64,000 bases of DNA from Patescibacteria group bacterium (GTDB lineage Bacteria > Patescibacteriota > Patescibacteriia > PEXW01). This document shows positions 9,652-55,903 of the stretch, in pieces (position 1 is the first letter of the stretch; every line of letters begins with the position of its first letter). Location of the stretch: the NCBI GenBank assembly GCA_041665345.1, contig JBAYJA010000003.1, forward strand, positions 39,202 to 103,201. The letters run 5' to 3'. The position numbers and the translations under genes are program-made. Under the pieces are notes generated by a model. It was not told the DNA's origin. It worked only from the letters and a program-made list of their open reading frames with translations, and searched no databases.

Positions 9652-9654
9652 TAA

Positions 9655-24428: not shown

Positions 24429-24562
24429 AAAGAATAATAATCCAGAGACTGCTCGAAGTTTGAATCTGGTAGCCCTTATAGGAAAAGGCTGGAATCAGCT
24501 TATTGTAAGTCTTGTTAGTTTCAACGAGTTATATAGTGGTCAATTTTCCGAGCAACAGCAGG

Positions 24563-28438: not shown

Positions 28439-28441
28439 AAA

Positions 28442-28798
28442 TTATAGTTTATTTTTTGTATAGCTGCATGATGGGTAATTAGCGCATCCCCAAAATGCAC
28501 CATACCGCCCGCTTCTTGGTATCAACGTACCTCCGTCATTTGGGCATTTTAGTCGGTTATCATTTTTCTCAAGCAGCATTTGATGAATAAATCCTCTGCC
28601 CTTAACTTTTTCATTGACCTCGTCCGGCATGATAGATGGCCCGAGTTGAACAATTTCTGAAACTAAAGTGGCTGTGTCTAAATTACCAGCAACCTCAAAA
28701 GCAGCTTGATCTCGAAGCTTTTGACGATGTTTGTCAACGAAATGTTTAACAACACTCCAAATTATAATTATGGCTACAATTGCCCAAAATACGTACAT
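28442..28798 (-). CDS. membrane-anchored topoisomerase-type C4 zinc-ribbon protein (zf-C4_Topoisom)
   Basis: N-terminal TM MYVFWAIVAIIIIWSV. C-terminal KCPNDGGTLIPRSGRYGAFWGCANYPSCSYTK is the TopA-type zinc-ribbon signature. Its stop is 4 nt from the Mrr-like start. Confidence 0.65.
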   Translation of the reverse strand: MYVFWAIVAIIIIWSVVKHFVDKHRQKLRDQAAFEVAGNLDTATLVSEIVQLGPSIMPDEVNEKVKGRGFIHQMLLEKNDNRLKCPNDGGTLIPRSGRYGAFWGCANYPSCSYTKNKL

Positions 28799-28859
28799 AT
28801 TCTAATTATACGCTTAAAACAATTATCTGTGATGATTGCTGTATTATATTCGCGCTAGC

Positions 28860-29111
28860 CTAGATTCCTATAATGGCCGCCTTAACATCTCCCCGCTTTT
28901 TTCCCCAGCCTTTCCAAGATAATCCTTTTTTACCCTTTCGTTTAGTTCTTTGAGCTTTTAGTTCTTCGGTTGCTAAATCTCTAAGGGATCTCATTGTAGG
29001 GTCGTCCCCATCATCCTTTATGCTTTCTTGGATGCCACGATTCAGCGCTTTAGTAAACCTTTGGCCCCAGTTTGTACTAGGTCTTCTAGATTTTTTAACA
29101 CTTTTTTTCAT
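28860..29111 (-). CDS. small basic hypothetical protein
   Basis: 83 aa, Lys/Arg-rich (MKKSVKKSRRPSTNWGQRFTKALNRG...KRKGKKGLSWKGWGKKRG). First gene downstream of the membrane protein in the operon. Confidence 0.4.
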   Translation of the reverse strand: MKKSVKKSRRPSTNWGQRFTKALNRGIQESIKDDGDDPTMRSLRDLATEELKAQRTKRKGKKGLSWKGWGKKRGDVKAAIIGI

Positions 29112-29122
29112 AATGATTCAAA

Positions 29123-29494
29123 CTAAGAAAATAACTTATATATTAAACCCATAAATAACCAAAAACATGGGATTGCTAAACCAAAAATTGTTATCCATCC
29201 GTGATAGTAAGTTGAGATTGCGCGACCATCAACATTTTCAGACGCTGCTGATTTCCAGAAATATGTTAATTTCTTATTGTGAAGGCTTCCGATTAACCAA
29301 AATGCTGTTACGTAAATGACGCCGAGTGTTAAGCCAGTGCTACCATATTGCCAAATTATACTGCCACCAATTAGCAATGTGGCCAAAGTTTCTTGAGTTT
29401 CCTTTTTCTTTACATGGCTACGCCATAGGAGTAAATATCCTAAAACTCCAGTTATTGAAATTATGAAAAAGTTTGCAATTATATTCCAATCCAT
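29123..29494 (-). CDS. small multi-TM membrane protein
   Basis: MDWNIIANFFIISITGVLGYLLLW... with 4 predicted TM segments. Start at ATG 29494 is preferred over 29563. Confidence 0.45.
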   Translation of the reverse strand: MDWNIIANFFIISITGVLGYLLLWRSHVKKKETQETLATLLIGGSIIWQYGSTGLTLGVIYVTAFWLIGSLHNKKLTYFWKSAASENVDGRAISTYYHGWITIFGLAIPCFWLFMGLIYKLFS

Positions 29495-29628
29495 ATCTCT
29501 GAACGGTTTTATCTGGTAGAAAGCACAAAGCCCCCCGCCAGCGATGACCTTTCGGCCACCCATACCCCTTTCGGAGCATGACCGTTCAGAGTGCTCTGGA
29601 CGAGGAGCTTTATACTCTGAACGGTTTT
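29495..29628. promoter_or_regulatory. repeated 13-14 nt motif (CTCTGAACGGTTTT) in divergent intergenic region; candidate operator sites
   Basis: ctctgaacggtttt at 29497-29510 and 29615-29628 (direct), accgttcagag at 29581-29591 (inverted). These sit between the divergent genes 29123..29494(-) and 29739..30557(+). Confidence 0.35.
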
Positions 29629-29738
29629 GTTGCCATGCCCTAGCAAAGCTAAGGTTTAGGCGATAAAATTAAATTGCTAGTATTTATACTTCAATTGCTT
29701 GATAATTAGAGTGAAACATATCAATTTTACTCGAAAAA

Positions 29739-30557
29739 ATGATAAATGTAAAGGATAATCCGAGTCTTTCAAAGGCGTATTATCGGTGGTTACGAAGAAA
29801 AAAGACCGTGGATTTTGATGTTCTACGTAGTGGATTTTTGAATGCGAATAAAACGTATCTCCATCAAATCAAGTCGTGTATAAATGATGATAAGTTTCAT
29901 AGCATTATGTCAGTTGGAATGGAAGTCGCAGCGTTCTTTAATGCAAACAGAGCGTATTCGGGCTATGAAACTTTAGTAGAAAAAAACATTCTCCCAAAAA
30001 AGGTTTTTAAAATAAAACCACTGACTGAGACATCAGAGGACTTTGCAAATCATTTAATCAATAAATACCATTTGTCAGAAACTACGCTTAGAGAACTCTC
30101 CGAAATTGCGTTTAAGTATCTTCGATCGATTCTTTCAAAGACGAAAAACGGTATACTTCCTTTAGAAAAGGCGAGGTCAGTACAATTCATAAACAATTGC
30201 ATCGATAGATATTTCCCGATTTTAATCCGTTATCTTAAAAAGAAGTACAAATTAAAAAAACTTATATATCTTCGCAAGATAAATAGTCACACATGTAACA
30301 CAGCATGTCCTCGTTGTGGCAAACTTTTGATACGGACGAAAATATATGAACGATGTACAAGGACAGAGAACCGGCATTGCCAAATGGGTTCTAACGCACT
30401 CAGAAGAGGAAGGAAAAAAGATGACAAAAGCTTTGTTGGTAGTTGTAGTTGTTGTGGGGTGTTTTCCCCTTTACTCAAAAGCCACGTATTAAGTGGCGAA
30501 CAACTGCTTTTTTGCAGCCAAAGGTGTTATGAAAGAGTAAGAAAAAAACTTCACTAA
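29739..30557 (+). CDS. AT-rich hypothetical protein with C-terminal Cys-rich (zinc-finger-like) region
   Basis: 272 aa. C-terminus ...HTCNTACPRCGKLLIRTKIYERC...HCQ...CSCCGVFSP...CSQRC. Followed by a terminator. Confidence 0.45.
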   Translation: MINVKDNPSLSKAYYRWLRRKKTVDFDVLRSGFLNANKTYLHQIKSCINDDKFHSIMSVGMEVAAFFNANRAYSGYETLVEKNILPKKVFKIKPLTETSEDFANHLINKYHLSETTLRELSEIAFKYLRSILSKTKNGILPLEKARSVQFINNCIDRYFPILIRYLKKKYKLKKLIYLRKINSHTCNTACPRCGKLLIRTKIYERCTRTENRHCQMGSNALRRGRKKDDKSFVGSCSCCGVFSPLLKSHVLSGEQLLFCSQRCYERVRKKLH

Positions 30558-30576
30558 TTTTAAGTAAAGCTGAATT

Positions 30577-30597
30577 GGCCCATAATGGGCTTTTTTT
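30577..30597 (+). terminator. rho-independent terminator
   Basis: gccca taa tgggc hairpin followed by ttttttt. Confidence 0.6.
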
Positions 30598-30860
30598 GTT
30601 TCCCATTTAATTATGTCCAAAAAGCTGGGGATAAGTTAGCGCGTGCATAATCAAAATGTCGCGAGGAGCACACTCACAGTGCTCAAAGGGCGACAGTAAA
30701 TAAATCCTTTGAAGATTGTGAGCTACGCCTCTAGACCAGCTCGCCAAACGGTGATGATAAGCAGTCTCATAGTACTAGCAGTAAATACTATAAGACTACT
30801 ATCACCGGCGGCAGACTGGGGAGAGGGAAGGTGCCTTAAGTAACTAATCCGGTGGGTAAT

Positions 30861-31043
30861 ATGTCAACTAAGCGACAAGAAGCAAACCAGACAAAGCAGA
30901 TCAGGGTTGCAAAAGGTAACCATAAAGGGTTGAAGATTTTTGCCGCTCGCGAAGGAATGCCAATGATGGCCTTAGCAGATCAAATTATCAGCCAATATCT
31001 TTACGAAACATATCGCTGGCCAGAATACCATGTTGACGATTAA
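30861..31043 (+). CDS. small putative ribbon-helix-helix-like regulator upstream of integrase
   Basis: MSTKRQEANQTKQIRVAKGNHKGLKIFAAREGMPMMALADQIISQYL has a beta-strand then two helices. GGTGGG SD before ATG 30861. Confidence 0.35.
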   Translation: MSTKRQEANQTKQIRVAKGNHKGLKIFAAREGMPMMALADQIISQYLYETYRWPEYHVDD

Positions 31044-31221
31044 ACAGTGTAGACAAATTGAGCCAAGCCTTTCTGAACTTTCTGATGAGGAAATTGTTCA
31101 TCTTCGTGATTCTATGTATGAACTAGCCACTCTGGCTTTTGAATCCACTCAAAAACAAGGGGGTGTTTCCAAAAATCCCACTTGGGTAATGCCAACTTTT
31201 AAAGAAGACGCTAATATATAA
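31030..31221 (+). CDS. small hypothetical protein upstream of integrase (low confidence)
   Basis: 63-aa ORF overlapping the previous stop by 14 nt and ending 6 nt before the integrase start. Confidence 0.3.
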   Translation: MLTIKQCRQIEPSLSELSDEEIVHLRDSMYELATLAFESTQKQGGVSKNPTWVMPTFKEDANI

Positions 31222-31226
31222 ATGCG

Positions 31227-32756
31227 ATGACTACTAAAGAACAAAATATCAAACGAGGAGTTATATACGTTCGTGTTTCCTCAAAAGATCAGGTAGATAA
31301 CACCAGCCTTGAATCTCAGGAAAAGGCCTGTGGGGAGTATTGCCTTCGAAACCATATTGAAGTTGTTAAAGTTTTTATTGAACAAGGTGAATCCGCAAAG
31401 AGTGCAGATCGGACAGAGTTTAATAAGGCAATCCAATTTTGTGGCATCCAAAAAAATAACATTGGGTATTTTGTTGTTTACAAACTTGACCGCTTTGCTC
31501 GAAATCAAGAAGACCATGTGACTGTTCGGGCATTGTTAAAAAAGTATGGCGCTGAGCTGAAGTCGGCAACTGAACCGATCAATGATTCGCCAATAGGAAA
31601 AGCGATGGAAGGTATGCTTTCAGTTTTTGCAGAGTTTGATAACAATGTTCGTACTGAACGAACACGGGGAGGAATGCTTGAAAGAATTCGACAAGGGGCT
31701 TGGGTTTGGTCTGCGCCGCTTGGATATAAACGTGTGGGCGGGGTAAAAAATATCTCGCCGGATGAATTAACTGCGCCACATATAAAACAAATCTTCAATT
31801 TGTACGCAAAAGGCATATACACGTATAAGGCAATTGCTAATTTAATGGACACGGCTGGAATGCGCACGAGGTATGGCAAGCGCCCACGCGCTCAGCTGAT
31901 TGAGAAGATACTACGCAATCCAATTTATTACGGTCACATAGAGGCGTTTGGTGAAGAACACAAAGGTAGTTTCCCGCCATTGATTAGTGAAGAGCTTTAC
32001 TTAAGTTGTCAGCCAAACAGCAAGAACTTAAAAGGCCACGCGGCACCTCGATCGGCAAATAACCCCATGTATCCGCTTAGAGGAGTTGTAGTGTGCGAAG
32101 AGTGCGGCACGAGTTTTACAGGAAGTACTTCTACAGGGCGTGCCAGTCAACGATATTCCTATTATCATCATTACAAAAAAAGTTGTTCTAAAGCCAAGAG
32201 CATCCCTCGCGAATCTTTTGAACAAGAGTTCGTAGAGTATTTGGAGTCAATTACGCCAAGCCTAAAATACGAAAAATGGTTTAAGGCAATAGTTATCGAT
32301 ATTTGGCAAAATAACTACAAAAACATTAGCTCACAAAATCAGAAAGCGAGATTAGAGCTTACACGACTTGAGGCTGAGAGAGATCGTGTATTTACCATGA
32401 TGCGTCAAGGCAAGCTAACTGATGACGAGTTTAGTGAACAAAAAAATGCCGTCAATTTACAAATAGCGAATAAATACCAGCAGCTGAATGAAAAGCAGTA
32501 TGAGGGCTTAGACATGGAGAAAACTTTAGACGCCTGTTTTAGCTTTGTTCGAAACACAGCAAAAACCTGGCGCGAGGCCGATTATGCTGGGCGATTACAA
32601 TTCCAGAAACTTGTTTTTCAAGATAAGCTCCAATTTAATGGGAAGAGGTTTGGAAACGCCAAATTGTCCCCAATCTACGAGATGAATAGGATGTTTGACG
32701 GGAATAAATCTAGCTTGGTAGCCCCACGGGGAATCGAACCCCGATTACCGGCTTGA
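31227..32756 (+). CDS. large serine recombinase (serine integrase)
   Basis: Resolvase catalytic domain GVIYVRVSSKDQ (nucleophilic Ser), recombinase domain, and a C-terminal Zn-ribbon CEECGTSF...YYHHYKK.C, coiled coil. The last 41 nt overlap tRNA-Glu on the other strand (...GIEPRLPA reads through the T-arm). Confidence 0.9.
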   Translation: MTTKEQNIKRGVIYVRVSSKDQVDNTSLESQEKACGEYCLRNHIEVVKVFIEQGESAKSADRTEFNKAIQFCGIQKNNIGYFVVYKLDRFARNQEDHVTVRALLKKYGAELKSATEPINDSPIGKAMEGMLSVFAEFDNNVRTERTRGGMLERIRQGAWVWSAPLGYKRVGGVKNISPDELTAPHIKQIFNLYAKGIYTYKAIANLMDTAGMRTRYGKRPRAQLIEKILRNPIYYGHIEAFGEEHKGSFPPLISEELYLSCQPNSKNLKGHAAPRSANNPMYPLRGVVVCEECGTSFTGSTSTGRASQRYSYYHHYKKSCSKAKSIPRESFEQEFVEYLESITPSLKYEKWFKAIVIDIWQNNYKNISSQNQKARLELTRLEAERDRVFTMMRQGKLTDDEFSEQKNAVNLQIANKYQQLNEKQYEGLDMEKTLDACFSFVRNTAKTWREADYAGRLQFQKLVFQDKLQFNGKRFGNAKLSPIYEMNRMFDGNKSSLVAPRGIEPRLPA

Positions 32757-32790
32757 AAAGCCGATGTCCTAACCGTTAGACGATAGGGCC
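32716..32790 (-). tRNA. tRNA-Glu (anticodon UUC)
   Basis: RC gives GGCCCTA TC GTCT AACGGTTA GGAC A TCGGC TTTTCAA GCCGG TAATC GGGGT TCGATTC CCCGT GGGGCTA CCA, a cloverleaf with T-loop GTTCGATTC, anticodon loop UUUUCAA (UUC) and encoded CCA. Closely resembles bacterial tRNA-Glu. Confidence 0.85.
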
Positions 32791-32930
32791 GTGATACAGC
32801 AACCTATAACGAATAATACCTGCGGTCAAGGGTTTTGCCTAGGACTTGATGGGTTACTTACCCCCGGCGAAAAGTTTTCTGCATTTAGGCTTGCGCGTCT
32901 TCGAACGAGCATTAAACCCCGCCTCCCTCT

Positions 32931-34298
32931 TTACTTGAACCCGAAGAGTGGTGGGAAGAGGAAGATGACAAGGGAAGCCCAGGCTGCATAGACCGGTATG
33001 TAGTTCGTTTGCCATCGCTCAATGTGCGCGAACGTCCCCCGCCCGCGGAGGAAACGCACGTACAGCACGGTTGACCACGCAAGATTGACGAGCAAGATAA
33101 AATTTTCGCCCAAGGCCGCAACCCGGTTTGGGCTAAAGCCGAATTCAGAGATGCGCGAGGCAATTGCCCACAGTGCCACTGCATCGGCCAAGAGGGCGCT
33201 CACCAGCAGGACCACTTGCAAGACATCAAAGGCGTTGCGAGGGGCCAGCGGGGCGCGGGCGGAGATGGAGTAGACCAGCAAGCCAAGGACGACCACTAAG
33301 AGCAAATCGAAGGCAATGAGGATGTTGCGGTCAACGTCTATGCCATGGCCTGACACCACGATGGTGACCAGGAACACCACCAAGACGATGGCGAAGAGGG
33401 GCGTGAACAGCCGGGTTAACACTGGCGCCATGTTTTCAATCACACTCTGCTTCGCTTCCACCAACCACGAGCCAATGATAACCGCTCCCGCTGCACCGCA
33501 CGGGATAATCCAGGTGCCAACAATTGGCTCTACATTGAAACCGATTGACTGAAAAATCGCAAAGAGAAAGCCAGTGAGCACGCCGCCACCCAAGGCAATG
33601 AGCACGTAGTAAATGAGCAGCTCGCCTGTGTAGCGGATGAAGTCCATGCGGCCGGCAACGTCACGCCAGCGTTTTCCGGCATAGGCCAGACCCACAATGA
33701 GCCACATTGCAATGGGCACGTGCAAGCTGGTGAGAGCTTCGGTGGAGCCGCCGGCCAGGAAAGGGTAGGCGTTCGCACCTATCGCACCAATGACAAACCC
33801 AATAGCCGCGGGAATGATCGTCTGACGAGAGACGCCCCGCTTCCAGATGAAGTAGGCAGCCAAGATGGGCAGGACGAAGAAGCTGATATTCCGCATGTAG
33901 AAACTTTCATCATGCTCAATATCCAGGCCGAAGATCGTCGGAAGCTTCACCAGTAAGCCCGCGACTATCGCCAAGCCAAAAGCGACGGCTGTTTCTCTGC
34001 GGCTCCCCCGCTTGGAGTGCTCTGCATCCGGAGAAGTGAGCACGAGCTGCTTCCACAGCCGATCCGAATGCTCCCGGGCGAATTCTTTGGACAGTGCATC
34101 CAGATTCCCCATCCGCTTGACGGCAATCAGAAACGCTTCATCCGCAGCTAAGCCGGCATCGGTCAGCCCGGTGATGTGCTCGCGCAGATGGTCTTCCAGT
34201 TCGGCCACGTCGGTTGCCTGGATAACTTGGTGGCGCTGGAGGAAGTTTCGCCACTGATTGATTTGCTCCTCAAGCTGTTCGGTCTGGGGTGTTGGCAT
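32931..34298 (-). CDS. HAAS (DUF1700)-like N-terminal domain + polytopic membrane (DUF4153-like) protein, partner of PadR
   Basis: N-terminal ...LEDHLREHITGLTDAGLAADEAFLIAVKRMGNLDALSKEF fits the HAAS pattern, followed by at least 8 TM segments. Its start is 9 nt after the PadR stop. Confidence 0.55.
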   Translation of the reverse strand: MPTPQTEQLEEQINQWRNFLQRHQVIQATDVAELEDHLREHITGLTDAGLAADEAFLIAVKRMGNLDALSKEFAREHSDRLWKQLVLTSPDAEHSKRGSRRETAVAFGLAIVAGLLVKLPTIFGLDIEHDESFYMRNISFFVLPILAAYFIWKRGVSRQTIIPAAIGFVIGAIGANAYPFLAGGSTEALTSLHVPIAMWLIVGLAYAGKRWRDVAGRMDFIRYTGELLIYYVLIALGGGVLTGFLFAIFQSIGFNVEPIVGTWIIPCGAAGAVIIGSWLVEAKQSVIENMAPVLTRLFTPLFAIVLVVFLVTIVVSGHGIDVDRNILIAFDLLLVVVLGLLVYSISARAPLAPRNAFDVLQVVLLVSALLADAVALWAIASRISEFGFSPNRVAALGENFILLVNLAWSTVLYVRFLRGRGTFAHIERWQTNYIPVYAAWASLVIFLFPPLFGFK

Positions 34299-34307
34299 AT
34301 GCGTTGC

Positions 34308-34667
34308 TTAGACTACGGCTGCAGGGTGAAATGATTGGAGCAGCGTGGAACCGATTCCCCGAATTGTCGCTTCAACTGCCCGCCACTGCTCAAGTTCTTC
34401 CGCCAGCTGCGTTTTACCACTGGCGGTGATGCGGTAGTACTTCCGCTTCCGTCCATTCTCCGCGGCTTTCCACTGCCCTTCAATAAATCCCAGCCGCTCC
34501 AGGCGATGCAGGACGGGGTAGAGCATGCCGTCGGTCCAGGTGATTTGGCGGGCAGAAGCTTCCTGCACCTGTTTGAGGATTGCGTAGCCGTAATTCTCCT
34601 GCTGTACCAAAGTGGCAAGGACAATTGGGGTAGAAGAGGCGGCAATCAGGTCTTTGTTAATCTCCAT
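34308..34667 (-). CDS. PadR family transcriptional regulator
   Basis: YGYAILKQV...GMLYPVLHRLERLGFIEGQW....RKRKYYRITASG is the PadR winged-helix signature. Confidence 0.85.
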   Translation of the reverse strand: MEINKDLIAASSTPIVLATLVQQENYGYAILKQVQEASARQITWTDGMLYPVLHRLERLGFIEGQWKAAENGRKRKYYRITASGKTQLAEELEQWRAVEATIRGIGSTLLQSFHPAAVV

Positions 34668-34939: not shown

Positions 34940-37315
34940 ATGATTTTCTACAGTTCCGGACGCCTTCGGAAGCTGATTTTTCGTGGAATGGTAGTTGTTG
35001 TCTTGGCAAGTGCCGTGGTCACCACAACCTTTTTTTCCTACGGACTGCTCTCCGCTTCGCGCCCGCCCGCCCAAATTAATATCAACTACTACTACAACAA
35101 CGTAGGATCTTCAAAGGTCCTGGCGTTAACTTTTGACGATGGCCCGTTTCCTGGCCGCACCGAGGCAATCATGGACGTGCTGGAGAAAGAAAAAGTACCT
35201 GCCACTTTTTTCTTCATTGGCTCGCGTGCGCTGCGGTATCCAGATTTGGTGAAGCAGGTTGCAGAGCGGGGTTTTGAAATTGGGAATCACAGCTTCACGC
35301 ACGCCCCGTCGGTCCACGCTGCGCCCTGGCGGCTGCGGCTGGAGCTCAACCTAGCCGCGACAATGATTGAGTCGGTGACCGGCCAACCCATTCGTTTGTA
35401 TCGCCCACCTTTTCTCCTGGACATTGGCAGCGACCCCACCACGACATTTCCGGGGTCACGCCCAGAACTTGCTTGGGCCGTGCAAGATGGGTACGTGGTC
35501 GTGGGCGCAGATGTTGATCCCAAAGACTGGCTGGCAACGTCATCCAAAGACATTGTGGAGGATTTGGTGAAGCAGCTGGAGAACGGCGGCCACATTATCC
35601 TCCTCCATGATGGGAGCAGCGAGCACCACACCGTGGAAGCTTTGCCTGGGATGATTAAAGAATTACGAAAGCGGGGGTATACCTTCGCCACGGCGTCCGA
35701 CCTGCTGGGCCTGGATGCGGCAAAGAAAATGGTTATCACCCATGACTTGAAACTGGGCGCCGTGGATGCGAAGACGCAGGGCTCGGTGACTGCCTTGCAA
35801 GAATTTTTGATCATGACCGGCTTTCCCATTGTTGACCAGGGCGGCGTCTACGGGCCTTCAACGCAGCGTGCAGTGGCAACGTGGCAAGGCCAACGTAACG
35901 TGGGAGACACAAGTGGCCAAGTGAACCTCCCTACCCGCTTGGCCATTGTGCAGGCACTGGAGGAGACCACCTACCAACCCCTACCCCCCAGTAAGCTGAA
36001 TGACGTTTTTCTCTTCACCCAAGCAACCCGGCTGTACATGTGGATTGCACCGTACTTTGCCACGGGCATTGTGTGGATTGTGAAGAGCGTGCTACTCCTG
36101 GTAGCCATTCGGCTGTTCTTCGCTTTGCTCCTCCGCGGGTACGCCGTGTGGAAAGCGAAGGCCAAGCACGAGCAGTGGAAAGGATTGGTATCGGTTATCA
36201 TTCCGGCGTACAACGAGGAAGAGAATATTGGCGCGACGGTGAAAAGCGTCCTCCGGAATACGTATAGGAATATCCAGGTACTGGTGATCAATGACGGTTC
36301 CAAAGATAACACGGAGAAAATTGTGCAGCAGTTGGTGAAGCAACACCCCAAGCGTTTGCAACTGCTGACCATTGAGAATGGCGGAAAAGCGCAAGCGCTG
36401 AATTATGGTTTTGCGCGGGCGCAGAGTGACGTTGTGGTCACCTTGGATGGTGACACGATTTTTGATCGGGAGACAATTACCAACATGGTGCAGCATTTTC
36501 GTGATCCTAATGTGGGCGCGGTGGCGGGGAAAGTGTGCACCACGCGGTCACGAAATATCCTCAATCTCTTCCAAGCGGCGGAGTACGTCATTTCCCAAAA
36601 CATGGATAAGCAAGGCTTCAATACCATTAATGCCGTGGGAATTGTGCCGGGTCCGGTTGGGGCTTGGCGAAAATCTTTCGTGCTGGCGGCAGGCGGGTAC
36701 AGTGTTGATACGTTGGTGGAAGACCAAGACCTTACCCTGGCGCTGCTGGCTGCCGGCCACCGGGTAGTGTACGAACCCCAGGCCCGGGCGTACAGCGAGA
36801 CGCCGTACCATGTCAAAGACTTTGCCAAGCAGCGGTTCCGCTGGATTTTTGGCACGGTCCAGTGCCTGTGGAAGTACAAGCGCTACACGTTTAGTTTCCG
36901 TCGGCCGGCGTTGGGCTGGGCTGTGCTGCCAAACACTTTTTTCTTTACGGTGGTGCTGCCGTTGCTCATCCCGCTCATGGATATCTTGCTCATCCTGGCG
37001 CTGGTGACCGGCTTTGGTCGTTCCACCTTCTTGCTCTACCTCATTTTTGTGGGCGTGGATTTTACCTATGCCGCGTTGGCCTTCTGGCAAGAGAATAGAC
37101 GGCGTTGGCTACTACTCCTGCTCCCCGTGCAACGCATTTTCTACCGCGTTCTCATTTTCCTGGTGGTGGCGCGCAGCGTGATTAAAGCAATTGAAGGTGC
37201 CGCACCAAATTGGAATAAAGTGCGGAAGCGGGGTGACGTGCACACCTACCACTTGCAGCTTCTGCAGGAAGCAAAGGTGAAAGTGTCAGTCGATAGCATT
37301 CACCACGAGACATAA
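34940..37315 (+). CDS. fused polysaccharide deacetylase (NodB) - peptidoglycan-binding domain - family 2 glycosyltransferase (PNAG/chitin-synthase-like)
   Basis: N-terminal TM, then the NodB motifs ALTFDDGP, FFFIGSRA, GNHSFTH, LLHDGS. PG_binding_1-like GGVYGPSTQRAVATWQ. GT2 motifs VSVIIPAYNEEENI, INDGSKDNT, DGD, QRFRW with multiple C-terminal TMs. Confidence 0.85.
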   Translation: MIFYSSGRLRKLIFRGMVVVVLASAVVTTTFFSYGLLSASRPPAQININYYYNNVGSSKVLALTFDDGPFPGRTEAIMDVLEKEKVPATFFFIGSRALRYPDLVKQVAERGFEIGNHSFTHAPSVHAAPWRLRLELNLAATMIESVTGQPIRLYRPPFLLDIGSDPTTTFPGSRPELAWAVQDGYVVVGADVDPKDWLATSSKDIVEDLVKQLENGGHIILLHDGSSEHHTVEALPGMIKELRKRGYTFATASDLLGLDAAKKMVITHDLKLGAVDAKTQGSVTALQEFLIMTGFPIVDQGGVYGPSTQRAVATWQGQRNVGDTSGQVNLPTRLAIVQALEETTYQPLPPSKLNDVFLFTQATRLYMWIAPYFATGIVWIVKSVLLLVAIRLFFALLLRGYAVWKAKAKHEQWKGLVSVIIPAYNEEENIGATVKSVLRNTYRNIQVLVINDGSKDNTEKIVQQLVKQHPKRLQLLTIENGGKAQALNYGFARAQSDVVVTLDGDTIFDRETITNMVQHFRDPNVGAVAGKVCTTRSRNILNLFQAAEYVISQNMDKQGFNTINAVGIVPGPVGAWRKSFVLAAGGYSVDTLVEDQDLTLALLAAGHRVVYEPQARAYSETPYHVKDFAKQRFRWIFGTVQCLWKYKRYTFSFRRPALGWAVLPNTFFFTVVLPLLIPLMDILLILALVTGFGRSTFLLYLIFVGVDFTYAALAFWQENRRRWLLLLLPVQRIFYRVLIFLVVARSVIKAIEGAAPNWNKVRKRGDVHTYHLQLLQEAKVKVSVDSIHHET

Positions 37316-37316
37316 A

Positions 37317-37353
37317 AAAACCGCCCGCACCTTTCGGTGCTGGTGGTTTTTGC
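37317..37353. terminator. bidirectional terminator between convergent genes
   Basis: aaaaa ccgcccgcacc tttc ggtgctggtgg ttttt imperfect hairpin with an A-run and a T-run. Confidence 0.4.
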
Positions 37354-37372
37354 CGTTGCTACCCTGAAATTA

Positions 37373-38524
37373 TTATTTGATGGTGTAACTGTCTCCGTAG
37401 GTTTTCCAGCTGAGGGGTGTGTTCAAGTCAAGATTGCCGGCGTTCAAGAACACTCGCTGCGCCGTGTCCACTCGGCTGGTGTCATCATGCGCGGCTTCGG
37501 TAAGCATGGCTGCTTTGCGGGCATCCAAAAATGCGTGGAGGTAGGTGGTTTCATTGCCACCCTGCGCGGGGCTCTTCGCTTTCTTCAAGGCCGTCGCGCG
37601 GATACCGCCGAAGCTCACGGAATCATTCCCCGGGCCGTGCATAACCATGGCATCGTAGTAGATGAACTGCCCCAAAGCGCGCAGGCCATCAGCTTTGGCT
37701 TGGTTCACTGCCGGGTTGAAGTACACCACGTCACGTTCGTGGTTCTGCGCTTCTTGGAATTTTGGATCAGCGGCTGCTGTCTTCCAGTCATTCACGTAGG
37801 CCGTACCCAGGCCGCTATGCGAACTGGAGCCATCAACCTGCTGTAAGGCAGGAATGTACTTCTGTAAAATATTGCCGGGCGCAATTTGTGCGTAGTACTG
37901 CACCATTTGTAACATGTCATGCGTGCCAGAGGTGAAGCCAATGATGCCACCGGTGTAGCCCCGGCTATCGCCAATATCTTCAATGTAGCCGTACTGCGCC
38001 TTCCAGTTCAGCGTCGAGTTCTCTGCGCTGGAAACCAGCTGCATGGTGATCTCTTTTTTGGCTGCGTCAAACAAGTCTGCAGTGGAAGTGGGTGCCGGCG
38101 CGCTATTCGTATTGACAGCGGTGTTCGTGTTCGCCGATGTATTCGTTGGCTTCGTCACGTTCGTATTTTTCTTCACCGGGGTTTTCTTCTTCACCGGCAC
38201 GGCCTTCTTCGTCGCCTGCTTCGCCGTCGTTGGTTGTGCGGCCGCGGTATTGGTTTGTACGTCCGCTGTAGCATTCACATTCATCATTTCGGGAACCACA
38301 AGCACGGCGGAATTGACCATTTCGCCTTCTACCATCCCGTCGACGTATGGTATCTCATACGCATTTACCAAAACCTCCTCATTCGTGGACACGGCCACGG
38401 TTGGGGCTTCTTCTTGCTGGGCCGCAATGGCGACCCCGATGGTGACTGCGAGCACGACTATGCTAAAGAGGAGCACCACTGAGAATGCGTGTCTTTTTGT
38501 CATAGAATACACAGTATAGCGCAT
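37373..38524 (-). CDS. secreted GH46-family chitosanase-like protein with Lys/Thr/Asn-rich linker
   Basis: NSTLNWKAQYGYIEDIGDSRGYTGGIIGFTSGTHDML closely matches the GH46 chitosanase catalytic-region signature. Signal peptide MRYTVYSMTKRHAFSVVLLFSIVVLAVTIGVAIAA. AGGAGGA SD before ATG 38524. Confidence 0.65.
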   Translation of the reverse strand: MRYTVYSMTKRHAFSVVLLFSIVVLAVTIGVAIAAQQEEAPTVAVSTNEEVLVNAYEIPYVDGMVEGEMVNSAVLVVPEMMNVNATADVQTNTAAAQPTTAKQATKKAVPVKKKTPVKKNTNVTKPTNTSANTNTAVNTNSAPAPTSTADLFDAAKKEITMQLVSSAENSTLNWKAQYGYIEDIGDSRGYTGGIIGFTSGTHDMLQMVQYYAQIAPGNILQKYIPALQQVDGSSSHSGLGTAYVNDWKTAAADPKFQEAQNHERDVVYFNPAVNQAKADGLRALGQFIYYDAMVMHGPGNDSVSFGGIRATALKKAKSPAQGGNETTYLHAFLDARKAAMLTEAAHDDTSRVDTAQRVFLNAGNLDLNTPLSWKTYGDSYTIK

Positions 38525-38819
38525 TTTTGTCCTCCTGTCCAGATTAGCCCAACTTGCGTTGAGCTTTTCCGTTTGCAAAGTGCGTCCTTTCCCGTTACGA
38601 AGTGCGGCAAAAGTCGGCCATGGAAAGTGTGAAAAATGTCACTTTTTAACATATTTAACTCATACTGTCAAGGGATAAGTTTTAAATTGACAGCGGTTCA
38701 CAAAAATGATAAAAAGCATTACTAGCCGAAATACAGAAGCAGGCACCAACACTAAAATTCAGCCAAAAATCCCCCCTTACATTTTCGTGGGCACTTCTCT
38801 TTGGTAACGTTACAAGCCT

Positions 38820-41285
38820 ATGCAACGCATCTACAGTCGGGTATCTCTCTTTCGGAATCGCCGCGCTATTCAGCGCCGCGCCTTTTTGCAGAATCTGAAA
38901 AAAGGTCTCCATGTGTTGGTCATCACTGTGACCATCTCCAACCTGGGCATGCTCAGCTCCGTTATTCGTCCCCTGACAGCCAGCGCTGCCACACTTGACG
39001 GCACCATTAGCGTCCAGAAGCAGTTTGACACAAATGGTGATGGCGTGGTTGATATCAACGGCACTACCGCGGATCCAATTTTGAGCGGCTGGGATTTTAC
39101 GGTGGAGGACGCCCTTGCGGCAACGCAAACCCAAACCACCACCGACACCGGTTTCCTGACCTTCGATGTGTACAACGGAACCTACTCGCTGCAGGAGTCT
39201 GGCTACTCCACTGGTTTCCACTTCGCAGATGCACGCTGCACCAATGCGGCCGGCGCACCAGTGGGAACGGTTGATCCAGCGGCGTTCGCGGTAACCGGAA
39301 TTCCGGTGAACACAGATGCAATTAGCTGCATTTTTATTAATACAATAGATACGGCCTCCATTAACGGCCAAAAGTGGAATGACCTGAATGGGAATGGCCA
39401 GTGGGATGAAGTTGCTCCAGCGCAAATTGGCGGCTGGCAGGTTTTCTTAGATACCAACAGCAATGGCGTCCTCGATGCTGGTGAGCAGACTGCCTCCACG
39501 ACGAATGTGCATGGTCCAAACGAGTACAACGCTATAGATGATTATGGATGGTATCATTTTGAAGATCTGCCCTACGGCACGTACCGTGTGTGCGAAACTA
39601 CAGTTGCAGGTTGGAACCAAACTTTCCCCGGTACTGCGAACGGCTGCCACACAGTCTCTATTCTCGACCCGCAGCAAGGCGACACCTGCTCTCCAGCTGC
39701 ACCCGAAGACCCGTACAACCTGGTTTGCGACTTTGGCAACCAAGAGCAGGCTCGCATAACCGTGCTGAAGAATGTGGACATGAATGGCGACGGCGACGTA
39801 CTGGATGCTGAAGATGTTGTGGGTGCCACAAACTGGACGTGGGATCTGAACAACGGCAACCAAAATTTTGCTACGGGTGGCACGCAGTACGCGACACCTG
39901 GTACGACCGTGACGGTGAAGGAAGACCAGAAGTCTGGTTTCCACTTCACCAGCGTCAGTTGTGTGGATGGCCGGGGTACAGTGCAAGTTGCGCAGAACGA
40001 GGAAGTGAGCTTTGCCGTGGCAACTGGCGTCACGTACACCTGCACGTATACGAATACGAAGAATCTTTCCACAACTATCGACAAGCAAGGTCCCGCCACG
40101 GCCGCTGCAGGTGCCAATGCGACCTACACCATCAACTGGACGGTTACGGGCGCACCTGCGGCAACCAATGTGACCATTACCGATCCCCTGCCAGCCAACA
40201 CCAGCTTTGTCTCTGCAGACAACAGCGGCGCGCTGAGTGGCAGCACGGTTACCTGGAACCTGGGCACGCAAGCGCCTGGTACCAGCGGCACGGTGTCCGT
40301 CACGGTGAAAGTGAACAGCCCCCTGGCCAATGGCACAGTACTGACGAACGTTGCGACCTTGGATACAGATCAAACTGAACCAGTGTCAGACACTGTCACG
40401 ACCACGGTTACTTCCGCACCAAGCTTGTCTATTACCAAAACGCACTCCGCTGCCAGTTTTGTGAATCCTGGTGCAGCGGTCACGTATACCGTTGTGGTTA
40501 CGAACGCAGCGAGCGCGACGGATAGCGCCAATGCAGTTGTGCTGACGGACGTCTTGCCCAGTGGTTTCACCTACACCACGGGTGGTACCACCAAGACCTT
40601 TGCCCTGGGGAACATTGCGCCTGGTGCGTCTGTGACCACGACCTACACAGTGACGGTAAGCGCCAGCCAGAAGGCGGGCAGCTTTACCAACACGGCGACG
40701 GCCAAAGGCAGTAACACCAGCACGGTGACCGCAACCTCTGCCGTTGAAGTCCGCGTGCCAGCAGTCTTGGGTGAGCAAACCCCATCGATTACCCCAACTC
40801 TCAAACCAACATTGACGCTGACCAAAACCGTGAGTGCGACCATGGCAAATCCTGGACAGGTGGTGACGTACACCATGGTGGTGAAGAACACGGGCACGCT
40901 CAAGGTTGCCAACGTGGTTATTACAGACACGCTCCCAACTGGCTTTACGTTCTTGGATGGTGGGAAAATCACCAAGACTTGGACCTTCGCCAGCATCGCT
41001 GCGGGAGCTAGCCAAACCGTAACCGCGTTGGTGAAAATTGGTTCGGGCGTGAAAGCTGGTACATACCCCAACACCGCGAAGGTGTCTGCCACAGCTGTAG
41101 ATCCTATTACTGCCACGGCAACCCTGCGCATCGCAGTGCCGCAAGTGAAGGGCGAACTGGCAGCGACAGGTGCCTCAGCATCTGACTACGGCATCTTTGG
41201 CCTGGGCATGCTCTTGCTCAGCTTTGGCTTTGTCGCCCTCCACGACTCCCGACGCAAAAACCCGGAAGTTGAGGAAGTCAAGTAA
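38820..41285 (+). CDS. cell-surface repeat protein (SdrD B-like / Cna-B folds and DUF11 repeats) with C-terminal LAATG sorting signal
   Basis: N-terminal QRRAFLQNLKKG plus a hydrophobic stretch. SdrD-B-like GNGQWDE...GWYHFEDLPYGTYRVCE. Multiple DUF11-type repeats (TYT.TV.N.G...A.NVV.TD.LP.G). C-terminal LAATG, then a hydrophobic segment and RRKNPE tail. Confidence 0.8.
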   Translation: MQRIYSRVSLFRNRRAIQRRAFLQNLKKGLHVLVITVTISNLGMLSSVIRPLTASAATLDGTISVQKQFDTNGDGVVDINGTTADPILSGWDFTVEDALAATQTQTTTDTGFLTFDVYNGTYSLQESGYSTGFHFADARCTNAAGAPVGTVDPAAFAVTGIPVNTDAISCIFINTIDTASINGQKWNDLNGNGQWDEVAPAQIGGWQVFLDTNSNGVLDAGEQTASTTNVHGPNEYNAIDDYGWYHFEDLPYGTYRVCETTVAGWNQTFPGTANGCHTVSILDPQQGDTCSPAAPEDPYNLVCDFGNQEQARITVLKNVDMNGDGDVLDAEDVVGATNWTWDLNNGNQNFATGGTQYATPGTTVTVKEDQKSGFHFTSVSCVDGRGTVQVAQNEEVSFAVATGVTYTCTYTNTKNLSTTIDKQGPATAAAGANATYTINWTVTGAPAATNVTITDPLPANTSFVSADNSGALSGSTVTWNLGTQAPGTSGTVSVTVKVNSPLANGTVLTNVATLDTDQTEPVSDTVTTTVTSAPSLSITKTHSAASFVNPGAAVTYTVVVTNAASATDSANAVVLTDVLPSGFTYTTGGTTKTFALGNIAPGASVTTTYTVTVSASQKAGSFTNTATAKGSNTSTVTATSAVEVRVPAVLGEQTPSITPTLKPTLTLTKTVSATMANPGQVVTYTMVVKNTGTLKVANVVITDTLPTGFTFLDGGKITKTWTFASIAAGASQTVTALVKIGSGVKAGTYPNTAKVSATAVDPITATATLRIAVPQVKGELAATGASASDYGIFGLGMLLLSFGFVALHDSRRKNPEVEEVK

Positions 41286-41326
41286 TTCTTTCCCTTTTCC
41301 ATCTCAGTTCGCCTAACCGTTACCGT

Positions 41327-43024
41327 ATGAAGAAAGTCCTCGCTGTGCTCTCCGTGCTCGCACTTACCATTGCCGTGCTCCCACTGCGCCCATCGGCAGC
41401 GGTGGCTGCGGGTGTGAACCTCGTACTCAACCCATCCTTTGAGACGGGAACCACCAGCCCAACCTCGTGGTCCAAGGTGAATGGCTCCTCACGGAATCGG
41501 GCGACCTTTACTTACCCCGCTACCCCAGCCTTTGACGGGGCGAAGGCAGCGCGGATTACCGTGACCACGTATAAATCCGGTGATATTGGCTGGGCGTCTG
41601 CCAACTTTCCTGTGACCGCAGGGCTGCAGTATGATCTGTCCGTTTCCTCCAAGTCCGGCGTTTCCAGCACAGTCTTGGCAGTCTACAAACGCGCCGGCGG
41701 TGTTTCATCCACGGTCTCCCTGGGAACCGTGTCCGGAACAAATGCCTGGAAGACATTCACCAAAGTCGTCACCATCCCCGCGGGTGTGACCTCCATGTCC
41801 TTGCGCCAAGTGCTTCGGCGCACAGGTACTTTGGATGTAGATGCGTACTCCTTCAGCCTGCACGTCACAACCCCAACAACCCCAAACTTGATTGCGAACG
41901 GCGATTTGGAAAGCCTAACGCCTGGCACGCCTTCTCAGCCGCTATCGTGGACGACGGGATACTGGGGTACGCTCACGCCAGTCTTCACGTATCCCGTGGC
42001 AGGGAAGACCGGCAACGGCGCAAAAGTGCAGGTGACCAGCTACACCTCCGGTGATGCCAAGTGGGTGTTCAACCCCGTGGCCACCTCCGGTGGGAAGACG
42101 TACACGATCGCCTTTGACTACGCTGCAAACGTGGCGACGAACGTGTCCATTGAGTTTCACATGACTGATGGTTCGTACACTTACGCCTGGTTGGGTGACC
42201 CTGCAGCCAGCGCTGCCTGGACGACCTTCAACAGCCAGTTCACCTCCCCGGCTGGTTCGGACTCCTTCACCGTTTTCCAATCCCTGGTGAGCGTGGGGAC
42301 GTTGACTATTGATAACTACGTTGCCATGGATATCACCTCTGGTGCGCTGAACTTTGCCAACGGGATGATCACCCTGGACTTCGACGACACAATTTTGGAT
42401 CACTACACGGTGGCTCGGCCAATTCTTAATGCCGCTGGTATCAAGGCTAGCTTCTTCGCTATTACAGATCCAAGTGTTGGCATTGGTTCAGATGGGTACA
42501 TGACCTGGACCCAGGTGCAGCAGCTCCAAGCTGACGGTCACGAAATTGGCGCACACACCCGTACGCATGCTGATCTGGCCTCGCTGACTTTGGCACAGGC
42601 GCAGGCAGAAATTGTCGGTTCCAAAGCAGACCTGGCAGCGCGCGGCATTACAGCAACGAGCTTTGTGTACCCTTATGGCGTGCACAATGCCGCCATTCGG
42701 CAGATGGTGCAAGACGCAGGCTTCACCAGCGCCCGGAGCGTGAGCGATGGGTACAACTTCCCGGGCTCCAACAAGTTTGCCTTGCTGGACAAGCACGTTG
42801 AGTCCACCACCACGCTGGCGGATGTGCAGGGCTGGATTAACCAAGCCAAAGCCAACAAGACCTGGCTGATGCTGGAATTGCACGAGCAGACCAACACCCC
42901 CGGGCCAGACACGGGTGTGTACTACAACACCCCAGCAATGCTGCAGAATATCGTCAACGCGATTACTGCCAGCGGGATTCAGGTAGTGACCCAAGCGCAA
43001 GGTCGAGCCTTGATGAATCCGTAA
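41327..43024 (+). CDS. secreted polysaccharide deacetylase with two N-terminal CBM4/9-like carbohydrate-binding modules
   Basis: Signal peptide MKKVLAVLSVLALTIAVLPLRPSAAVAAG. Two NPSFE.G...W CBM-like repeats. NodB motifs ITLDFDD, HEIGAHTRTH, then YGV and ELHEQ. Confidence 0.85.
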   Translation: MKKVLAVLSVLALTIAVLPLRPSAAVAAGVNLVLNPSFETGTTSPTSWSKVNGSSRNRATFTYPATPAFDGAKAARITVTTYKSGDIGWASANFPVTAGLQYDLSVSSKSGVSSTVLAVYKRAGGVSSTVSLGTVSGTNAWKTFTKVVTIPAGVTSMSLRQVLRRTGTLDVDAYSFSLHVTTPTTPNLIANGDLESLTPGTPSQPLSWTTGYWGTLTPVFTYPVAGKTGNGAKVQVTSYTSGDAKWVFNPVATSGGKTYTIAFDYAANVATNVSIEFHMTDGSYTYAWLGDPAASAAWTTFNSQFTSPAGSDSFTVFQSLVSVGTLTIDNYVAMDITSGALNFANGMITLDFDDTILDHYTVARPILNAAGIKASFFAITDPSVGIGSDGYMTWTQVQQLQADGHEIGAHTRTHADLASLTLAQAQAEIVGSKADLAARGITATSFVYPYGVHNAAIRQMVQDAGFTSARSVSDGYNFPGSNKFALLDKHVESTTTLADVQGWINQAKANKTWLMLELHEQTNTPGPDTGVYYNTPAMLQNIVNAITASGIQVVTQAQGRALMNP

Positions 43025-55877: not shown

Positions 55878-55903
55878 CAGAATGATTATGCTAGTGTACT
55901 AGT

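Follow-up and report, generated by a model that had tools for sequence, protein, structure and literature searches.

The window analyzed here, a 64,000-nucleotide stretch of DNA, contains a locus in which a true chitosanase of family GH46 occupies a slot held in relatives by other presumed sugar-chain-handling proteins, next to the gene of a synthase-deacetylase of an already known type. We read the locus as chromosomal, from a Patescibacteria (Kerfeldbacteria-like) bacterium, and as serving a synthase-dependent surface polymer of N-acetylglucosamine, with GH46 as the cognate partner that acts on glycans. Taken jointly, these propositions have about an even chance of being correct. Patescibacteria are bacteria with tiny genomes. 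All four open reading frames are present at the positions below, with domains verified by profile searches; direct observation covers domains and catalytic residues as well as topology signals and synteny.

34940..37315, + strand: MatB-type bifunctional enzyme, 791 aa (Pfam, NCBIfam, 26 colinear orthologs, AF2 model)
34964..35053, + strand: its TM1 signal-anchor, residues 9-38 (hydropathy, charge count, AF2 helix 8-38)
35108..35719, + strand: CE4/NodB deacetylase domain, predicted extracytoplasmic, residues 57-260 (Polysacc_deac_1 3.6e-31, five CE4 motifs)
35747..35974, + strand: PG_binding_1-like three-helix module, residues ~270-345 (Pfam, AF2 helices)
35996..36151, + strand: TM2, long helix, residues 353-404 (AF2, hydropathy/charge)
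36188..36889, + strand: GT2 catalytic domain, predicted cytoplasmic (Glyco_tranf_2_3 5e-35; DGS, DGD, ED and QRFRW motifs)
36905..37195, + strand: three C-terminal hydrophobic helices, residues 656-752 (AF2 helices 656-690, 693-717 and 719-752; hydropathy)
37314..37352, no strand: hairpin between an A-run and a T-run, with the look of a bidirectional terminator (sequence; terminator-like match 37327-37340)
37373..38524, - strand: GH46 chitosanase, 383 aa (Pfam Glyco_hydro_46 1.4e-97)
37376-38080, - strand: GH46 catalytic domain, residues 149-383 (alignment to CsnA)
38820..41285, + strand: surface protein, 821 aa (Pfam, NCBIfam)
41157-41282, + strand: its C-terminal LAATG sorting signal (LAATG, hydrophobic segment, RRK)
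41327..43024, + strand: secreted second deacetylase, 565 aa (Pfam)

Architecture of the synthase-deacetylase

The 791-aa protein runs from TM1 through the CE4/NodB deacetylase, PG_binding_1 and TM2 to the processive GT2 synthase and three C-terminal TM helices. The Pfam match to Polysacc_deac_1 covers residues 57-158, and all CE4 motifs are present: TFDD (64-67), HSFTH (117-121), RPPF (155-158), DPKDW (193-197) and LLHDG (221-225). These motifs are invariant or at least 90% conserved in the 26 orthologs, the conserved residues being D66, D67, H117, H121, R155, D196, W197 and H223. The closest PDB entry to this domain is 7y51/7fbw (6e-32). The PG_binding_1 match in the window protein spans residues 281-329 (E 4e-4, 20.9 bits against a Pfam gathering score of 23); 25 of the 26 aligned orthologs match as well, with a best E of 3e-13, and the AF2 model places helices at 282-292, 306-318 and 330-343. 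As an insert, the module is peculiar to the Patescibacteria branch; tblastn detected it in the closest loci only.

Family matches to GT2 span residues 417-689 (5e-35, Pfam), and the DGS (452-454), DGD (503-505), ED (594-595) and QRFRW (631-635) motifs are retained, with catalytic columns invariant in the 26-ortholog alignment. PgaC_IcaA is the best NCBIfam match at 179.7 bits (cut-off 422), NodC reaches 93.6 bits (cut-off 550), and the Chitin_synth_2 score lies below its Pfam gathering score. The AF2 model (pLDDT 85.8) has hyaluronan and cellulose synthases and CE4 deacetylases as top Foldseek matches. The C-terminal helices, which match HAS and BcsA in fold, are presumed to form the translocation channel.

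Because the N-terminus carries three K/R and no acidic residues, it is predicted to be cytoplasmic; a K/R-rich loop comes after TM2 (five K/R in 399-416). From this positive-inside charge distribution and the AF2 model, NodB and PG_binding_1 are predicted to lie outside and GT2 inside, in line with the topology that a sequence-only reading of the window had proposed for NodB and GT2; its domain calls on this protein likewise agree with Pfam and NCBIfam.

The linked genes and the convergent slot

A signal peptide opens the second deacetylase; the two CBM_4_9-like modules that follow (residues 31-177 and 187-335) are homologous to each other, and its CE4 domain spans residues 343-560. Pfam (Polysacc_deac_1, 1.3e-20) bears out the earlier call of a secreted deacetylase with two CBM-like modules; among NCBIfam models HfsH scores best, with 86 bits against a cut-off of 400. 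Its orthologs adjoin the synthase in L001 (59% identity) and L003 (45%), and the two genes are neighbors at 23 distinct loci among the 46 Patescibacteria loci compared. The 821-aa surface protein carries SpaA/SdrD_B-like domains and three DUF11 (CLIPPER) domains behind a basic N-terminal signal; CLIPPER is a stalk domain in fibrillar adhesins (PMC12617251). Its LA[AT]TG motif, hydrophobic segment and basic tail are conserved in four orthologs, and this signal, with Pfam and NCBIfam, confirms the proposed LAATG-anchored DUF11/SdrD-B repeat protein. An RRxFL motif that had been taken for a twin-arginine-like N-terminus is not conserved in three orthologs. The synthase, CBM-deacetylase and LAxTG DUF11 genes keep their synteny in the window, L084, L088 and L089, four related genomes; together with the 23 loci, this sustains the claim of a linked gene set. 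Upstream, the window synthase is flanked by a divergent PadR gene. Genes for VanW/PG_binding_4 and SpoIID lie near the locus.

The GH46 protein comprises a signal peptide or anchor (residues 9-38), an N/T/K/P-rich linker of ~110 aa and the catalytic domain. Its Pfam match is full-length (profile positions 1-210 of 210), and the catalytic domain aligns without gaps over 234 residues with Streptomyces N174 CsnA at 76% identity, with the catalytic Glu22 and Asp40 as well as Arg42 and Thr45 conserved. Judged by sequence, it is a genuine chitosanase; "chitosanase-like", as it was first described, gave the correct enzyme class and understated a 76% identity to a crystallized, characterized chitosanase. 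To our knowledge, GH46 enzymes have been reported as chitosanases only, and we know of none that cleaves β-1,6 PNAG. The enzyme is of the actinobacterial group-A type (76-85% identity to Streptomyces, Kitasatospora and Streptacidiphilus enzymes), and its gene has a host-like GC3 and a composition native to the genome. Family GH46 is monospecific, with chitosanase as its activity (PMC6097792). No chitosan-oligomer transporter (csnEFG-type uptake genes), GlcN kinase or CsnR box was found within the window.

The GH46 and synthase genes lie tail-to-tail over the common hairpin terminator at 37314-37352. Their sequence marks them as separate, convergent transcription units, not as the divergent pair described before; GH46 is divergent from the DUF11 gene only. 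Of the 46 loci, 25 carry family X in the convergent slot, which lies 6-30 bp downstream of the synthase, and a further seven have family Y alone nearby. GH46 takes this slot in only two loci, the window and L084, whose synthase is 58% identical to that of the window. It is missing in the closest relatives (synthases 65%, 63% and 61% identical), and GH46 genes on other Patescibacteria or metagenome contigs (L086, L090, L091) are not adjacent to a synthase. Homologs of family Y often carry a LysM or PG_binding_1 fusion, and the family Y model gave only non-significant DPBB matches (expansins, GH45; E 0.13 or worse). Some family X proteins have N-termini that appear SLH-like by eye.

Outside Patescibacteria, a GH18 domain lies directly upstream of CE4 on the same strand in all non-truncated relatives (32/32), and wherever this was checked (L061, L051, P0109-P0120) the two belong to one protein. 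GH46 and the synthase may plausibly be linked in function, because GH46 fills the X/Y slot and other phyla have a GH18 domain fused to their synthase. Operons for synthase-dependent exopolysaccharides typically include a gene for a hydrolase or lyase that acts on the operon's product, such as BcsZ, PelA, PslG, AlgL or the C-terminal domain of PgaB. The placement of GH46 in the synthase-partner slot hints at a β-1,4 chitosan-like polymer.

Proposed pathway and competing explanations

We propose that the cytoplasmic GT2 of the MatB-type enzyme polymerizes UDP-GlcNAc, that the chain would cross the membrane by way of the enzyme's own transmembrane helices, and that its extracytoplasmic CE4 would de-N-acetylate part of the emerging chain. 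The PG_binding_1 module may tether the outer part of the protein to the cell wall, and the secreted enzyme with two CBM-like modules would deacetylate the polymer farther from the membrane. The convergent slot would supply a glycan-active partner, X or Y in most relatives and an endo-chitosanase in the window and L084; in other phyla this partner would be the fused GH18 domain. GH46 would act on GlcN-rich β-1,4 stretches, trimming, releasing or remodeling them, and a sortase-type (LAxTG) CLIPPER adhesin would be provided from the same locus. We infer the substrate, the action of GH46 on the polymer of its own locus and the β-1,4 rather than β-1,6 linkage.

It is possible, though on the doubtful side, that the enzyme is instead an ordinary MatB/PgaC-like β-1,6 PNAG synthase-deacetylase and GH46 an unrelated chitosanase of past lateral acquisition, which landed by chance at a permissive site between convergent genes and either scavenges GlcN oligomers of fungal or environmental chitosan or gives protection against chitosan. 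The closest characterized GT2 relatives, PgaC/IcaA by NCBIfam (180 versus 94 bits for NodC) and MatB by architecture, make β-1,6 PNAG, the assigned product of MatB (PMC5972031), and so speak against β-1,4. The scarcity of GH46 (absent from 44 of the 46 comparable loci), its different gene contexts elsewhere and its separate transcription unit count against a chitosan-like system, and its group-A type and the catabolic or protective roles of actinobacterial GH46 enzymes (PMC6097792) would also suit a lateral acquisition. However, slot and orientation are identical in two genomes whose synthases are just 58% identical, the slot region otherwise carries secreted or anchored X or Y (32 loci), and GH18 is fused in the 32 non-Patescibacteria relatives. 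Scavenging also fits poorly with a window that lacks the transporter, kinase and CsnR box, and with an enzyme of native composition that, in the manner of the surface proteins encoded nearby, has a membrane anchor or sits on a long linker.

Quite improbable, in our judgment, is that the extracytoplasmic enzymes target peptidoglycan, their own or that of a host, rather than the synthase product, with CE4 de-N-acetylating it, PG_binding_1 aiding and GH46 cutting GlcN-containing strands in wall remodeling or host attack. The top CE4 matches are the peptidoglycan deacetylases PdaB, PdaA, PgdA and PdaC. The conserved PG_binding_1 module, the LysM or PG_binding_1 fusions of family Y homologs, the by-eye SLH-like N-termini in family X, the nearby VanW/PG_binding_4 and SpoIID genes and the membership of GH46 in the lysozyme superfamily (PMC6097792) would agree with such a role. 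Yet CE4 is covalently joined to a processive synthase in several phyla, so that a CE4 ignoring the nascent chain is hard to explain, and GH46 enzymes are, as far as we know, reported solely as chitosanases (PMC6097792).

An assembly or frameshift artefact uniting separate deacetylase and synthase genes has next to no probability and found no support: the reading frame is uninterrupted, more than 100 full-length homologs are colinear, the N-terminus and every linker region are conserved among colinear orthologs (38-65% identity), a second JGI contig (100% identity over 3,131 bp) carries the identical 791-aa gene call, and the AF2 model is confident across the domain junctions, short loops excepted. 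Over 1,400 homologs of the fusion were found, mostly in Patescibacteria, and NCBI carries a standard name for the CE4-GT2 architecture. The domain order, called unusual in the sequence-only reading, is also that of Streptomyces MatB (PMC4391728). That reading holds in its domain calls, topology and linked gene set, and fails on fusion order, divergent transcription and the Tat-like motif.

Relation to known systems

MatB (SCO2962/SLI_3306, matAB locus), compared by architecture, has the same CE4-GT2 order as the window fusion, with NodB at the N-terminus and a PgaC-like GT2 domain at the C-terminus (PMC4391728). It makes an extracellular poly-GlcNAc adhesive layer, and its deletion abolishes extracellular poly-GlcNAc (PMC4391728, PMC5972031). 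Its CE4, like that of the window, is closest to enzymes acting on β-1,4 substrates. The window protein differs by the PG_binding_1 module between CE4 and TM2. Its locus lacks both a translationally coupled MatA-like gene upstream, where the divergent PadR gene lies, and an IcaC-like acyltransferase; the CBM-CE4 deacetylase, GH46 and the LAxTG adhesin make up the accessory genes.

The PgaABCD/IcaADBC systems share a processive GT2 whose motifs are D, DxD, ED and QxxRW, a product partly de-N-acetylated by a CE4 enzyme outside the membrane, and a dedicated hydrolase activity, supplied by the PgaB C-terminal domain. Their synthase and deacetylase are separate proteins, whereas those of the window are fused and lack a PgaD-/IcaD-like partner, porin and c-di-GMP module. 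Since it scores 180 bits against a cut-off of 422, the window GT2 is not a PgaC_IcaA equivalog. The hydrolases also differ, GH153 or GH20 in PNAG systems and the β-1,4 GlcN-specific GH46 here.

NodB/NodC and chitin synthase/chitin deacetylase pairs likewise combine a GT2 GlcNAc polymerase with a CE4 deacetylase, and their products are β-1,4 linked. However, NodB is a protein of the cytoplasm, separate from NodC, unlike the fused extracytoplasmic CE4, and the window GT2 remains far from these synthases in profile scores (94 bits on NodC, cut-off 550; Chitin_synth_2 below gathering score). Compared with CsnA N174 (GH46 group A, crystal structure), the window GH46 adds a signal-anchor and a ~110-aa low-complexity linker; it resides in a Patescibacteria genome beside a polysaccharide synthase, in a window without a CsnR box or csnEFG-type genes.

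GH18-CE4-GT2 triple fusions occur in Bacillota, Myxococcota and other phyla, for example in Neobacillus vireti (L061, 8585-11902). Their CE4-TM-GT2 core is homologous to the window fusion (35-45% identity), with GH18 in cis and without PG_binding_1, whereas GH46 is a separate gene in the window. In both, an extracytoplasmic module of a glycoside hydrolase family accompanies the synthase.

The synthase fusion and its neighbours

The four genes that the sequence-only reading described at 34940-43024 are real and lie where it placed them; the observation is confirmed and its interpretation is partly supported. Pfam searches and sequence features assign the genes as follows.

34940-37315 (+), fusion of CE4 (NodB-type) deacetylase, PG_binding_1-like and GT2 domains, 791 aa (hereafter the synthase)
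37373-38524 (-), GH46 protein (Glyco_hydro_46, 1.4e-97)
38820-41285 (+), LAxTG surface protein with three DUF11 ('CLIPPER') domains
41327-43024 (+), secreted CE4 deacetylase with two homologous CBM_4_9-like modules preceding the CE4 domain (CBM-deacetylase)

The synthase matches Polysacc_deac_1 (3.6e-31) and several GT2 families (~1e-35). Across 26 aligned orthologues (38-65% identity), the CE4 motifs TFDD, HSFTH, RPPF, DPKDW and LLHDG, as well as the GT2 motifs DGS, DGD, ED and QRFRW, are invariant or at least 90% conserved. The PG_binding_1 match (PF01471) is weak in the window protein, at 20.9 bits (E 4e-4) and so short of the gathering score of 23 bits, while 25 of the 26 orthologues give a match, with a best E of 3e-13. 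A three-helix bundle occupies its position in the AlphaFold2 model (pLDDT 85.8), which runs from a TM helix through the CE4 domain, the bundle, a long TM helix, the GT-A domain and an interface helix bearing QRFRW to three long hydrophobic helices. Compared with PDB folds, the N-terminal half of the model comes closest to CE4 deacetylases and the C-terminal half to hyaluronan synthases, BcsA and yeast Chs1. A predicted topology in which CE4 and PG_binding_1 are outside and GT2 is inside fits both TM1 and the charge bias, with three K/R residues at the N-terminus and five in the loop after TM2. The GT2 domain is nearer to PgaC/IcaA (TIGR03937, 179.7 bits over residues 381-685; cut-off 422.3) than to NodC (TIGR04242, 93.6 bits; cut-off 550) and falls below both cut-offs; the match to Pfam Chitin_synth_2 (23.7 bits) is likewise below threshold (27).

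The start at 34940 is supported because F3, R10 and R15 of the 791-aa form are conserved across orthologues. The JGI call P0001 is 16 codons shorter (775 aa), and a second JGI contig (L092) carries the 791-aa call. This contig is 100% identical over the GT2-GH46-DUF11 stretch; together with the uninterrupted reading frame and more than 100 full-length colinear homologues, it rules out a frameshift or assembly artefact. The fusion order had been thought unusual, a view that does not hold: the protein belongs to a known and already named family, and MatB (Streptomyces SCO2962 of the matAB locus) has the same order. We found 1,486 homologues at E≤1e-10, the closest from Candidatus Kerfeldbacteria and other Patescibacteria MAGs, and NCBI gives such proteins, P0033 and P0102 among them, the name 'bifunctional polysaccharide deacetylase/glycosyltransferase family 2 protein'.

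DUF11 has been renamed 'CLIPPER' and is described as a stalk domain (PMC12617251). The C-terminus of the surface protein consists of LAATG, GIFGLGMLLLSFGFVAL and RRK, a motif, hydrophobic segment and basic tail that match the pattern of a putative sortase substrate (LPXTG-type, LAxTG variant). The LA[AT]TG signal is conserved in four orthologues; no sortase gene was found among the window ORFs scanned. The proposed twin-arginine-like N-terminus did not survive comparison: RRAFLQ in the window protein corresponds to RRQAWRS, RKRAWRT and KRQAIRR in three orthologues, and a Tat signal, which calls for a conserved S/T-R-R-x-F-L-K ahead of the hydrophobic region, was rejected on this lack of conservation. 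The CBM-deacetylase is a CE4 member and no equivalog of the holdfast oligosaccharide deacetylase HfsH (NF050820, 86.2 bits; cut-off 400).

The window was compared with 91 fetched loci. The CBM-deacetylase adjoins the synthase in 23 distinct loci, with 45-59% identity in L003 and L001, and in the clade of the window (L084, L088 and L089) the synthase, CBM-deacetylase and LAxTG CLIPPER protein are all syntenic. The gene upstream of the synthase encodes a divergent PadR regulator (34308-34667, -), which together with a 455-aa multi-TM 'permease prefix domain 1' protein occupies 32931-34667 (-). Neither these two proteins nor VanW are found near synthase homologues, which rules them out as members of the system.

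The gene position downstream of the synthase

The GH46 signature recognized from the sequence alone passes the Pfam search over the full profile (PF01374, 325.9 bits, gathering 27; positions 1-210 of 210). Over the catalytic domain, an ungapped alignment with the crystallised Streptomyces N174 chitosanase (CsnN174) gives 76% identity, and SSAENST and DIGDSRGYT align to E22, D40, R42 and T45 (CsnN174 numbering), columns that are invariant among 10 sequences. The product belongs to GH46, a family of chitosanases that is monospecific (PMC6097792), and is itself a predicted chitosanase. Its N-terminus has a hydrophobic anchor or signal followed by a low-complexity linker of ~110 residues. The gene was described as divergent from the synthase; it is in fact convergent with it and divergent only from the DUF11 gene. 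The stop codons of the two convergent genes are 58 bp apart, with a hairpin between them flanked by A- and T-runs.

In a neighbour-joining tree (no bootstrap), the window GH46 groups with that of L084, one Patescibacteria MAG and three metagenome sequences. Its GC3 is host-like and it has no CsnR box (matches to the box are no more frequent than chance, 4 compared to 3.2 expected), so that a recent transfer from actinomycetes is not supported; these two observations and the tree grouping indicate that any such transfer would be old.

The principal rival explanation is that the GH46 protein is an unrelated scavenging or protective chitosanase, present at this locus by chance. GH46 occurs at the synthase in none of the 83 loci of the first collection, which rules out general conservation beside it, and the closest relatives, L001 (65%), L088 (63%) and L089 (61%), lack it; GH46 genes of other contigs lie in unrelated contexts. 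However, in L084, found later and the only such case (synthase 58% identical), the GH46 gene has the location and orientation that it has in the window, at a position that is otherwise mostly held by another protein family. We regard a chance presence as a serious possibility, albeit a somewhat doubtful one.

This position, or slot, is the gene directly downstream of the synthase, convergent with it and 6-30 bp from its end. Among the 46 Patescibacteria loci with enough flank, the slot holds a protein of family X in 25, only a family Y protein is found nearby in 7 more, and 11 have none of X, Y or GH46; both X and Y are missing from the window itself. Family X proteins share a conserved domain of ~190 aa (FWVGE...ENPFYFALPY...CYAQWQDVGP...AGIDLSPA) and are encoded at L089 10659-11390 (-), at L003 12349-13257 (-) and in 23 other loci. 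Family Y is marked by a domain of ~160 aa at the C-terminus (e.g. L084 13465-14337 (-), L001 12428-13483 (-) and P0241-P0360); its homologues number 448, and fusions to LysM or PG_binding_1 are frequent among them. Proteins of both families are N-terminally anchored or secreted, and we read the N-termini of some family X members as possibly SLH-like.

Neither family has a Pfam or PDB match by sequence. With hhalign probabilities below 2%, we ruled out that either is a lysozyme-like protein or a divergent GH46, and also that X and Y are related to one another. An AlphaFold2 model of the family Y domain (pLDDT 85-95) gave no significant Foldseek match; the best were expansins, GH45 and cerato-platanin, and since these are non-significant (E 0.13-5), a DPBB fold for Y is just a suggestion. 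For family X, a DPBB-like fold is an impression from its motifs. A tblastn likeness between the N-termini of the GH46 protein and family Y (E 7e-5 unfiltered for low complexity, E 0.33 with composition correction) was treated as a shared low-complexity linker, not homology.

Outside Patescibacteria, the homologues of the synthase are GH18-CE4-GT2 triple fusions of ~1,100-1,290 aa (e.g. L061 8585-11902, L051 8498-11887 and P0109-P0120), from Neobacillus, Virgibacillus, Oceanobacillus, Polyangiales, Nannocystaceae, Blastocatellia and others. All 32 non-truncated non-Patescibacteria loci have GH18-like sequence immediately upstream on the same strand, and L061 carries the GH18 motif DGINIDFE. The X/Y/GH46 slot and the GH18 fusions together indicate that, in nearly every branch of its family, the synthase is accompanied by an extracytoplasmic glycan-related module, which in the window genome is GH46. 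For a specialist, the surprise would lie in this pattern of slot and GH18 and in its implications for the polymer, not in the CE4-GT2 fusion.

Genomic setting

The genes dnaN, dnaA and yidC are clustered at 603-5044, marking a chromosomal replication-origin region at the start of the window. This cluster and the housekeeping genes carried in the window indicate that the locus is chromosomal. Three tandem paralogous small CarboxypepD_reg proteins are encoded at 7437-10436 (-) (7437-8153, 8861-9577 and 9699-10436); in L090 and L091, too, GH46 is preceded by a protein of this kind (CarboxypepD_reg/Big_7).

A stretch of low GC content (0.38-0.42, compared to ~0.54) at 23700-32800 looks like an integrated mobile element. 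It is bounded by tRNA-Glu(UUC) (32716-32790, -), which abuts a large serine recombinase (31227-32756, +) at this edge. The stretch also contains a Mrr-type restriction endonuclease (27323-28438), a SEC-C motif protein (24563-25702) and a full-length match to LOOT RNA (Rfam RF03000; 29543-29662, -; 91.5 bits, gathering 46.4).

A second polysaccharide cluster, of the Wzx/Wzy type and with a SpoIID-domain protein, is located at 53976-61070 and includes the following genes.

55904-57334, Wzx flippase
57318-58391, GT4 glycosyltransferase
58379-59809 and 59802-61070, two adjacent Wzy_C/O-antigen-ligase paralogues

Putative polymer and comparison with MatB

The best-supported reading of the locus is a putative synthase-dependent surface poly-GlcNAc system. 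The chain would be polymerised in the cytoplasm by the GT2 domain and translocated by the synthase itself. The tethered CE4 domain would deacetylate it as it emerges, and the CBM-CE4 enzyme may deacetylate it further. Trimming or remodelling would fall to the slot-encoded enzyme, here GH46, with the LAxTG protein as a possible adhesin co-located with the polymer genes.

GH18 enzymes act on β-1,4 GlcNAc linkages; this and the monospecificity of GH46 for chitosan speak for a product that is β-1,4-linked and chitosan-like. The affinity of the GT2 domain to PgaC/IcaA, and the assignment of the MatB product as β-1,6 PNAG, point by analogy to the other side of the linkage question. MatB is needed for extracellular poly-GlcNAc, assigned as PNAG, and its authors noted that sequence is unable to decide between 1,4 and 1,6 linkage (PMC5972031). 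A more far-reaching proposal is that the CE4-GT2 family makes a β-1,4 chitin-like chain, deacetylated on emergence to wall-associated chitosan and not PNAG, with a dedicated β-1,4-specific remodelling module in each lineage (GH18 in cis, DPBB-like X/Y, or GH46); Patescibacteria could then attach to host cells by means of the cationic polymer, which PG_binding_1 would tether and the LAxTG adhesin accompany. We consider this proposal unlikely as it stands.

Little is known of the cell envelopes and attachment mechanisms of Patescibacteria (CPR), which are abundant episymbionts and for the most part uncultured. The locus is a concrete candidate for a surface polysaccharide system in this group, and the near-constant pairing of the synthase with GH18, X/Y or GH46 provides an internal clue to the polymer linkage. 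If the product is β-1,4-linked and deacetylated, bacteria would, like fungi, be de novo makers of chitosan, and the large 'bifunctional deacetylase/GT2' family would need re-annotation. If it is PNAG, the locus would simply add to the MatB-like systems, and its chitosanase would be incidental.

Neither the Patescibacteria version of the synthase nor the GH18-CE4-GT2 fusions turned up in our searches of the literature. As far as the searchable literature shows, the Patescibacteria architecture (PG_binding_1 insert, CBM-CE4 partner and X/Y/GH46 slot) is an undescribed variant. Compared with the published architecture of MatB (PMC4391728), the synthase shares an N-terminal extracytoplasmic NodB/CE4 domain with catalytic motifs MT1-MT5 and, after a TM helix, a C-terminal PgaC-like processive GT2 domain with D, DxD, ED and QxxRW. 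However, MatB has a translationally coupled upstream membrane partner (MatA), whereas no co-oriented ORF lies upstream of the window synthase. The PG_binding_1 insert and the accessory genes are particular to the Patescibacteria branch.
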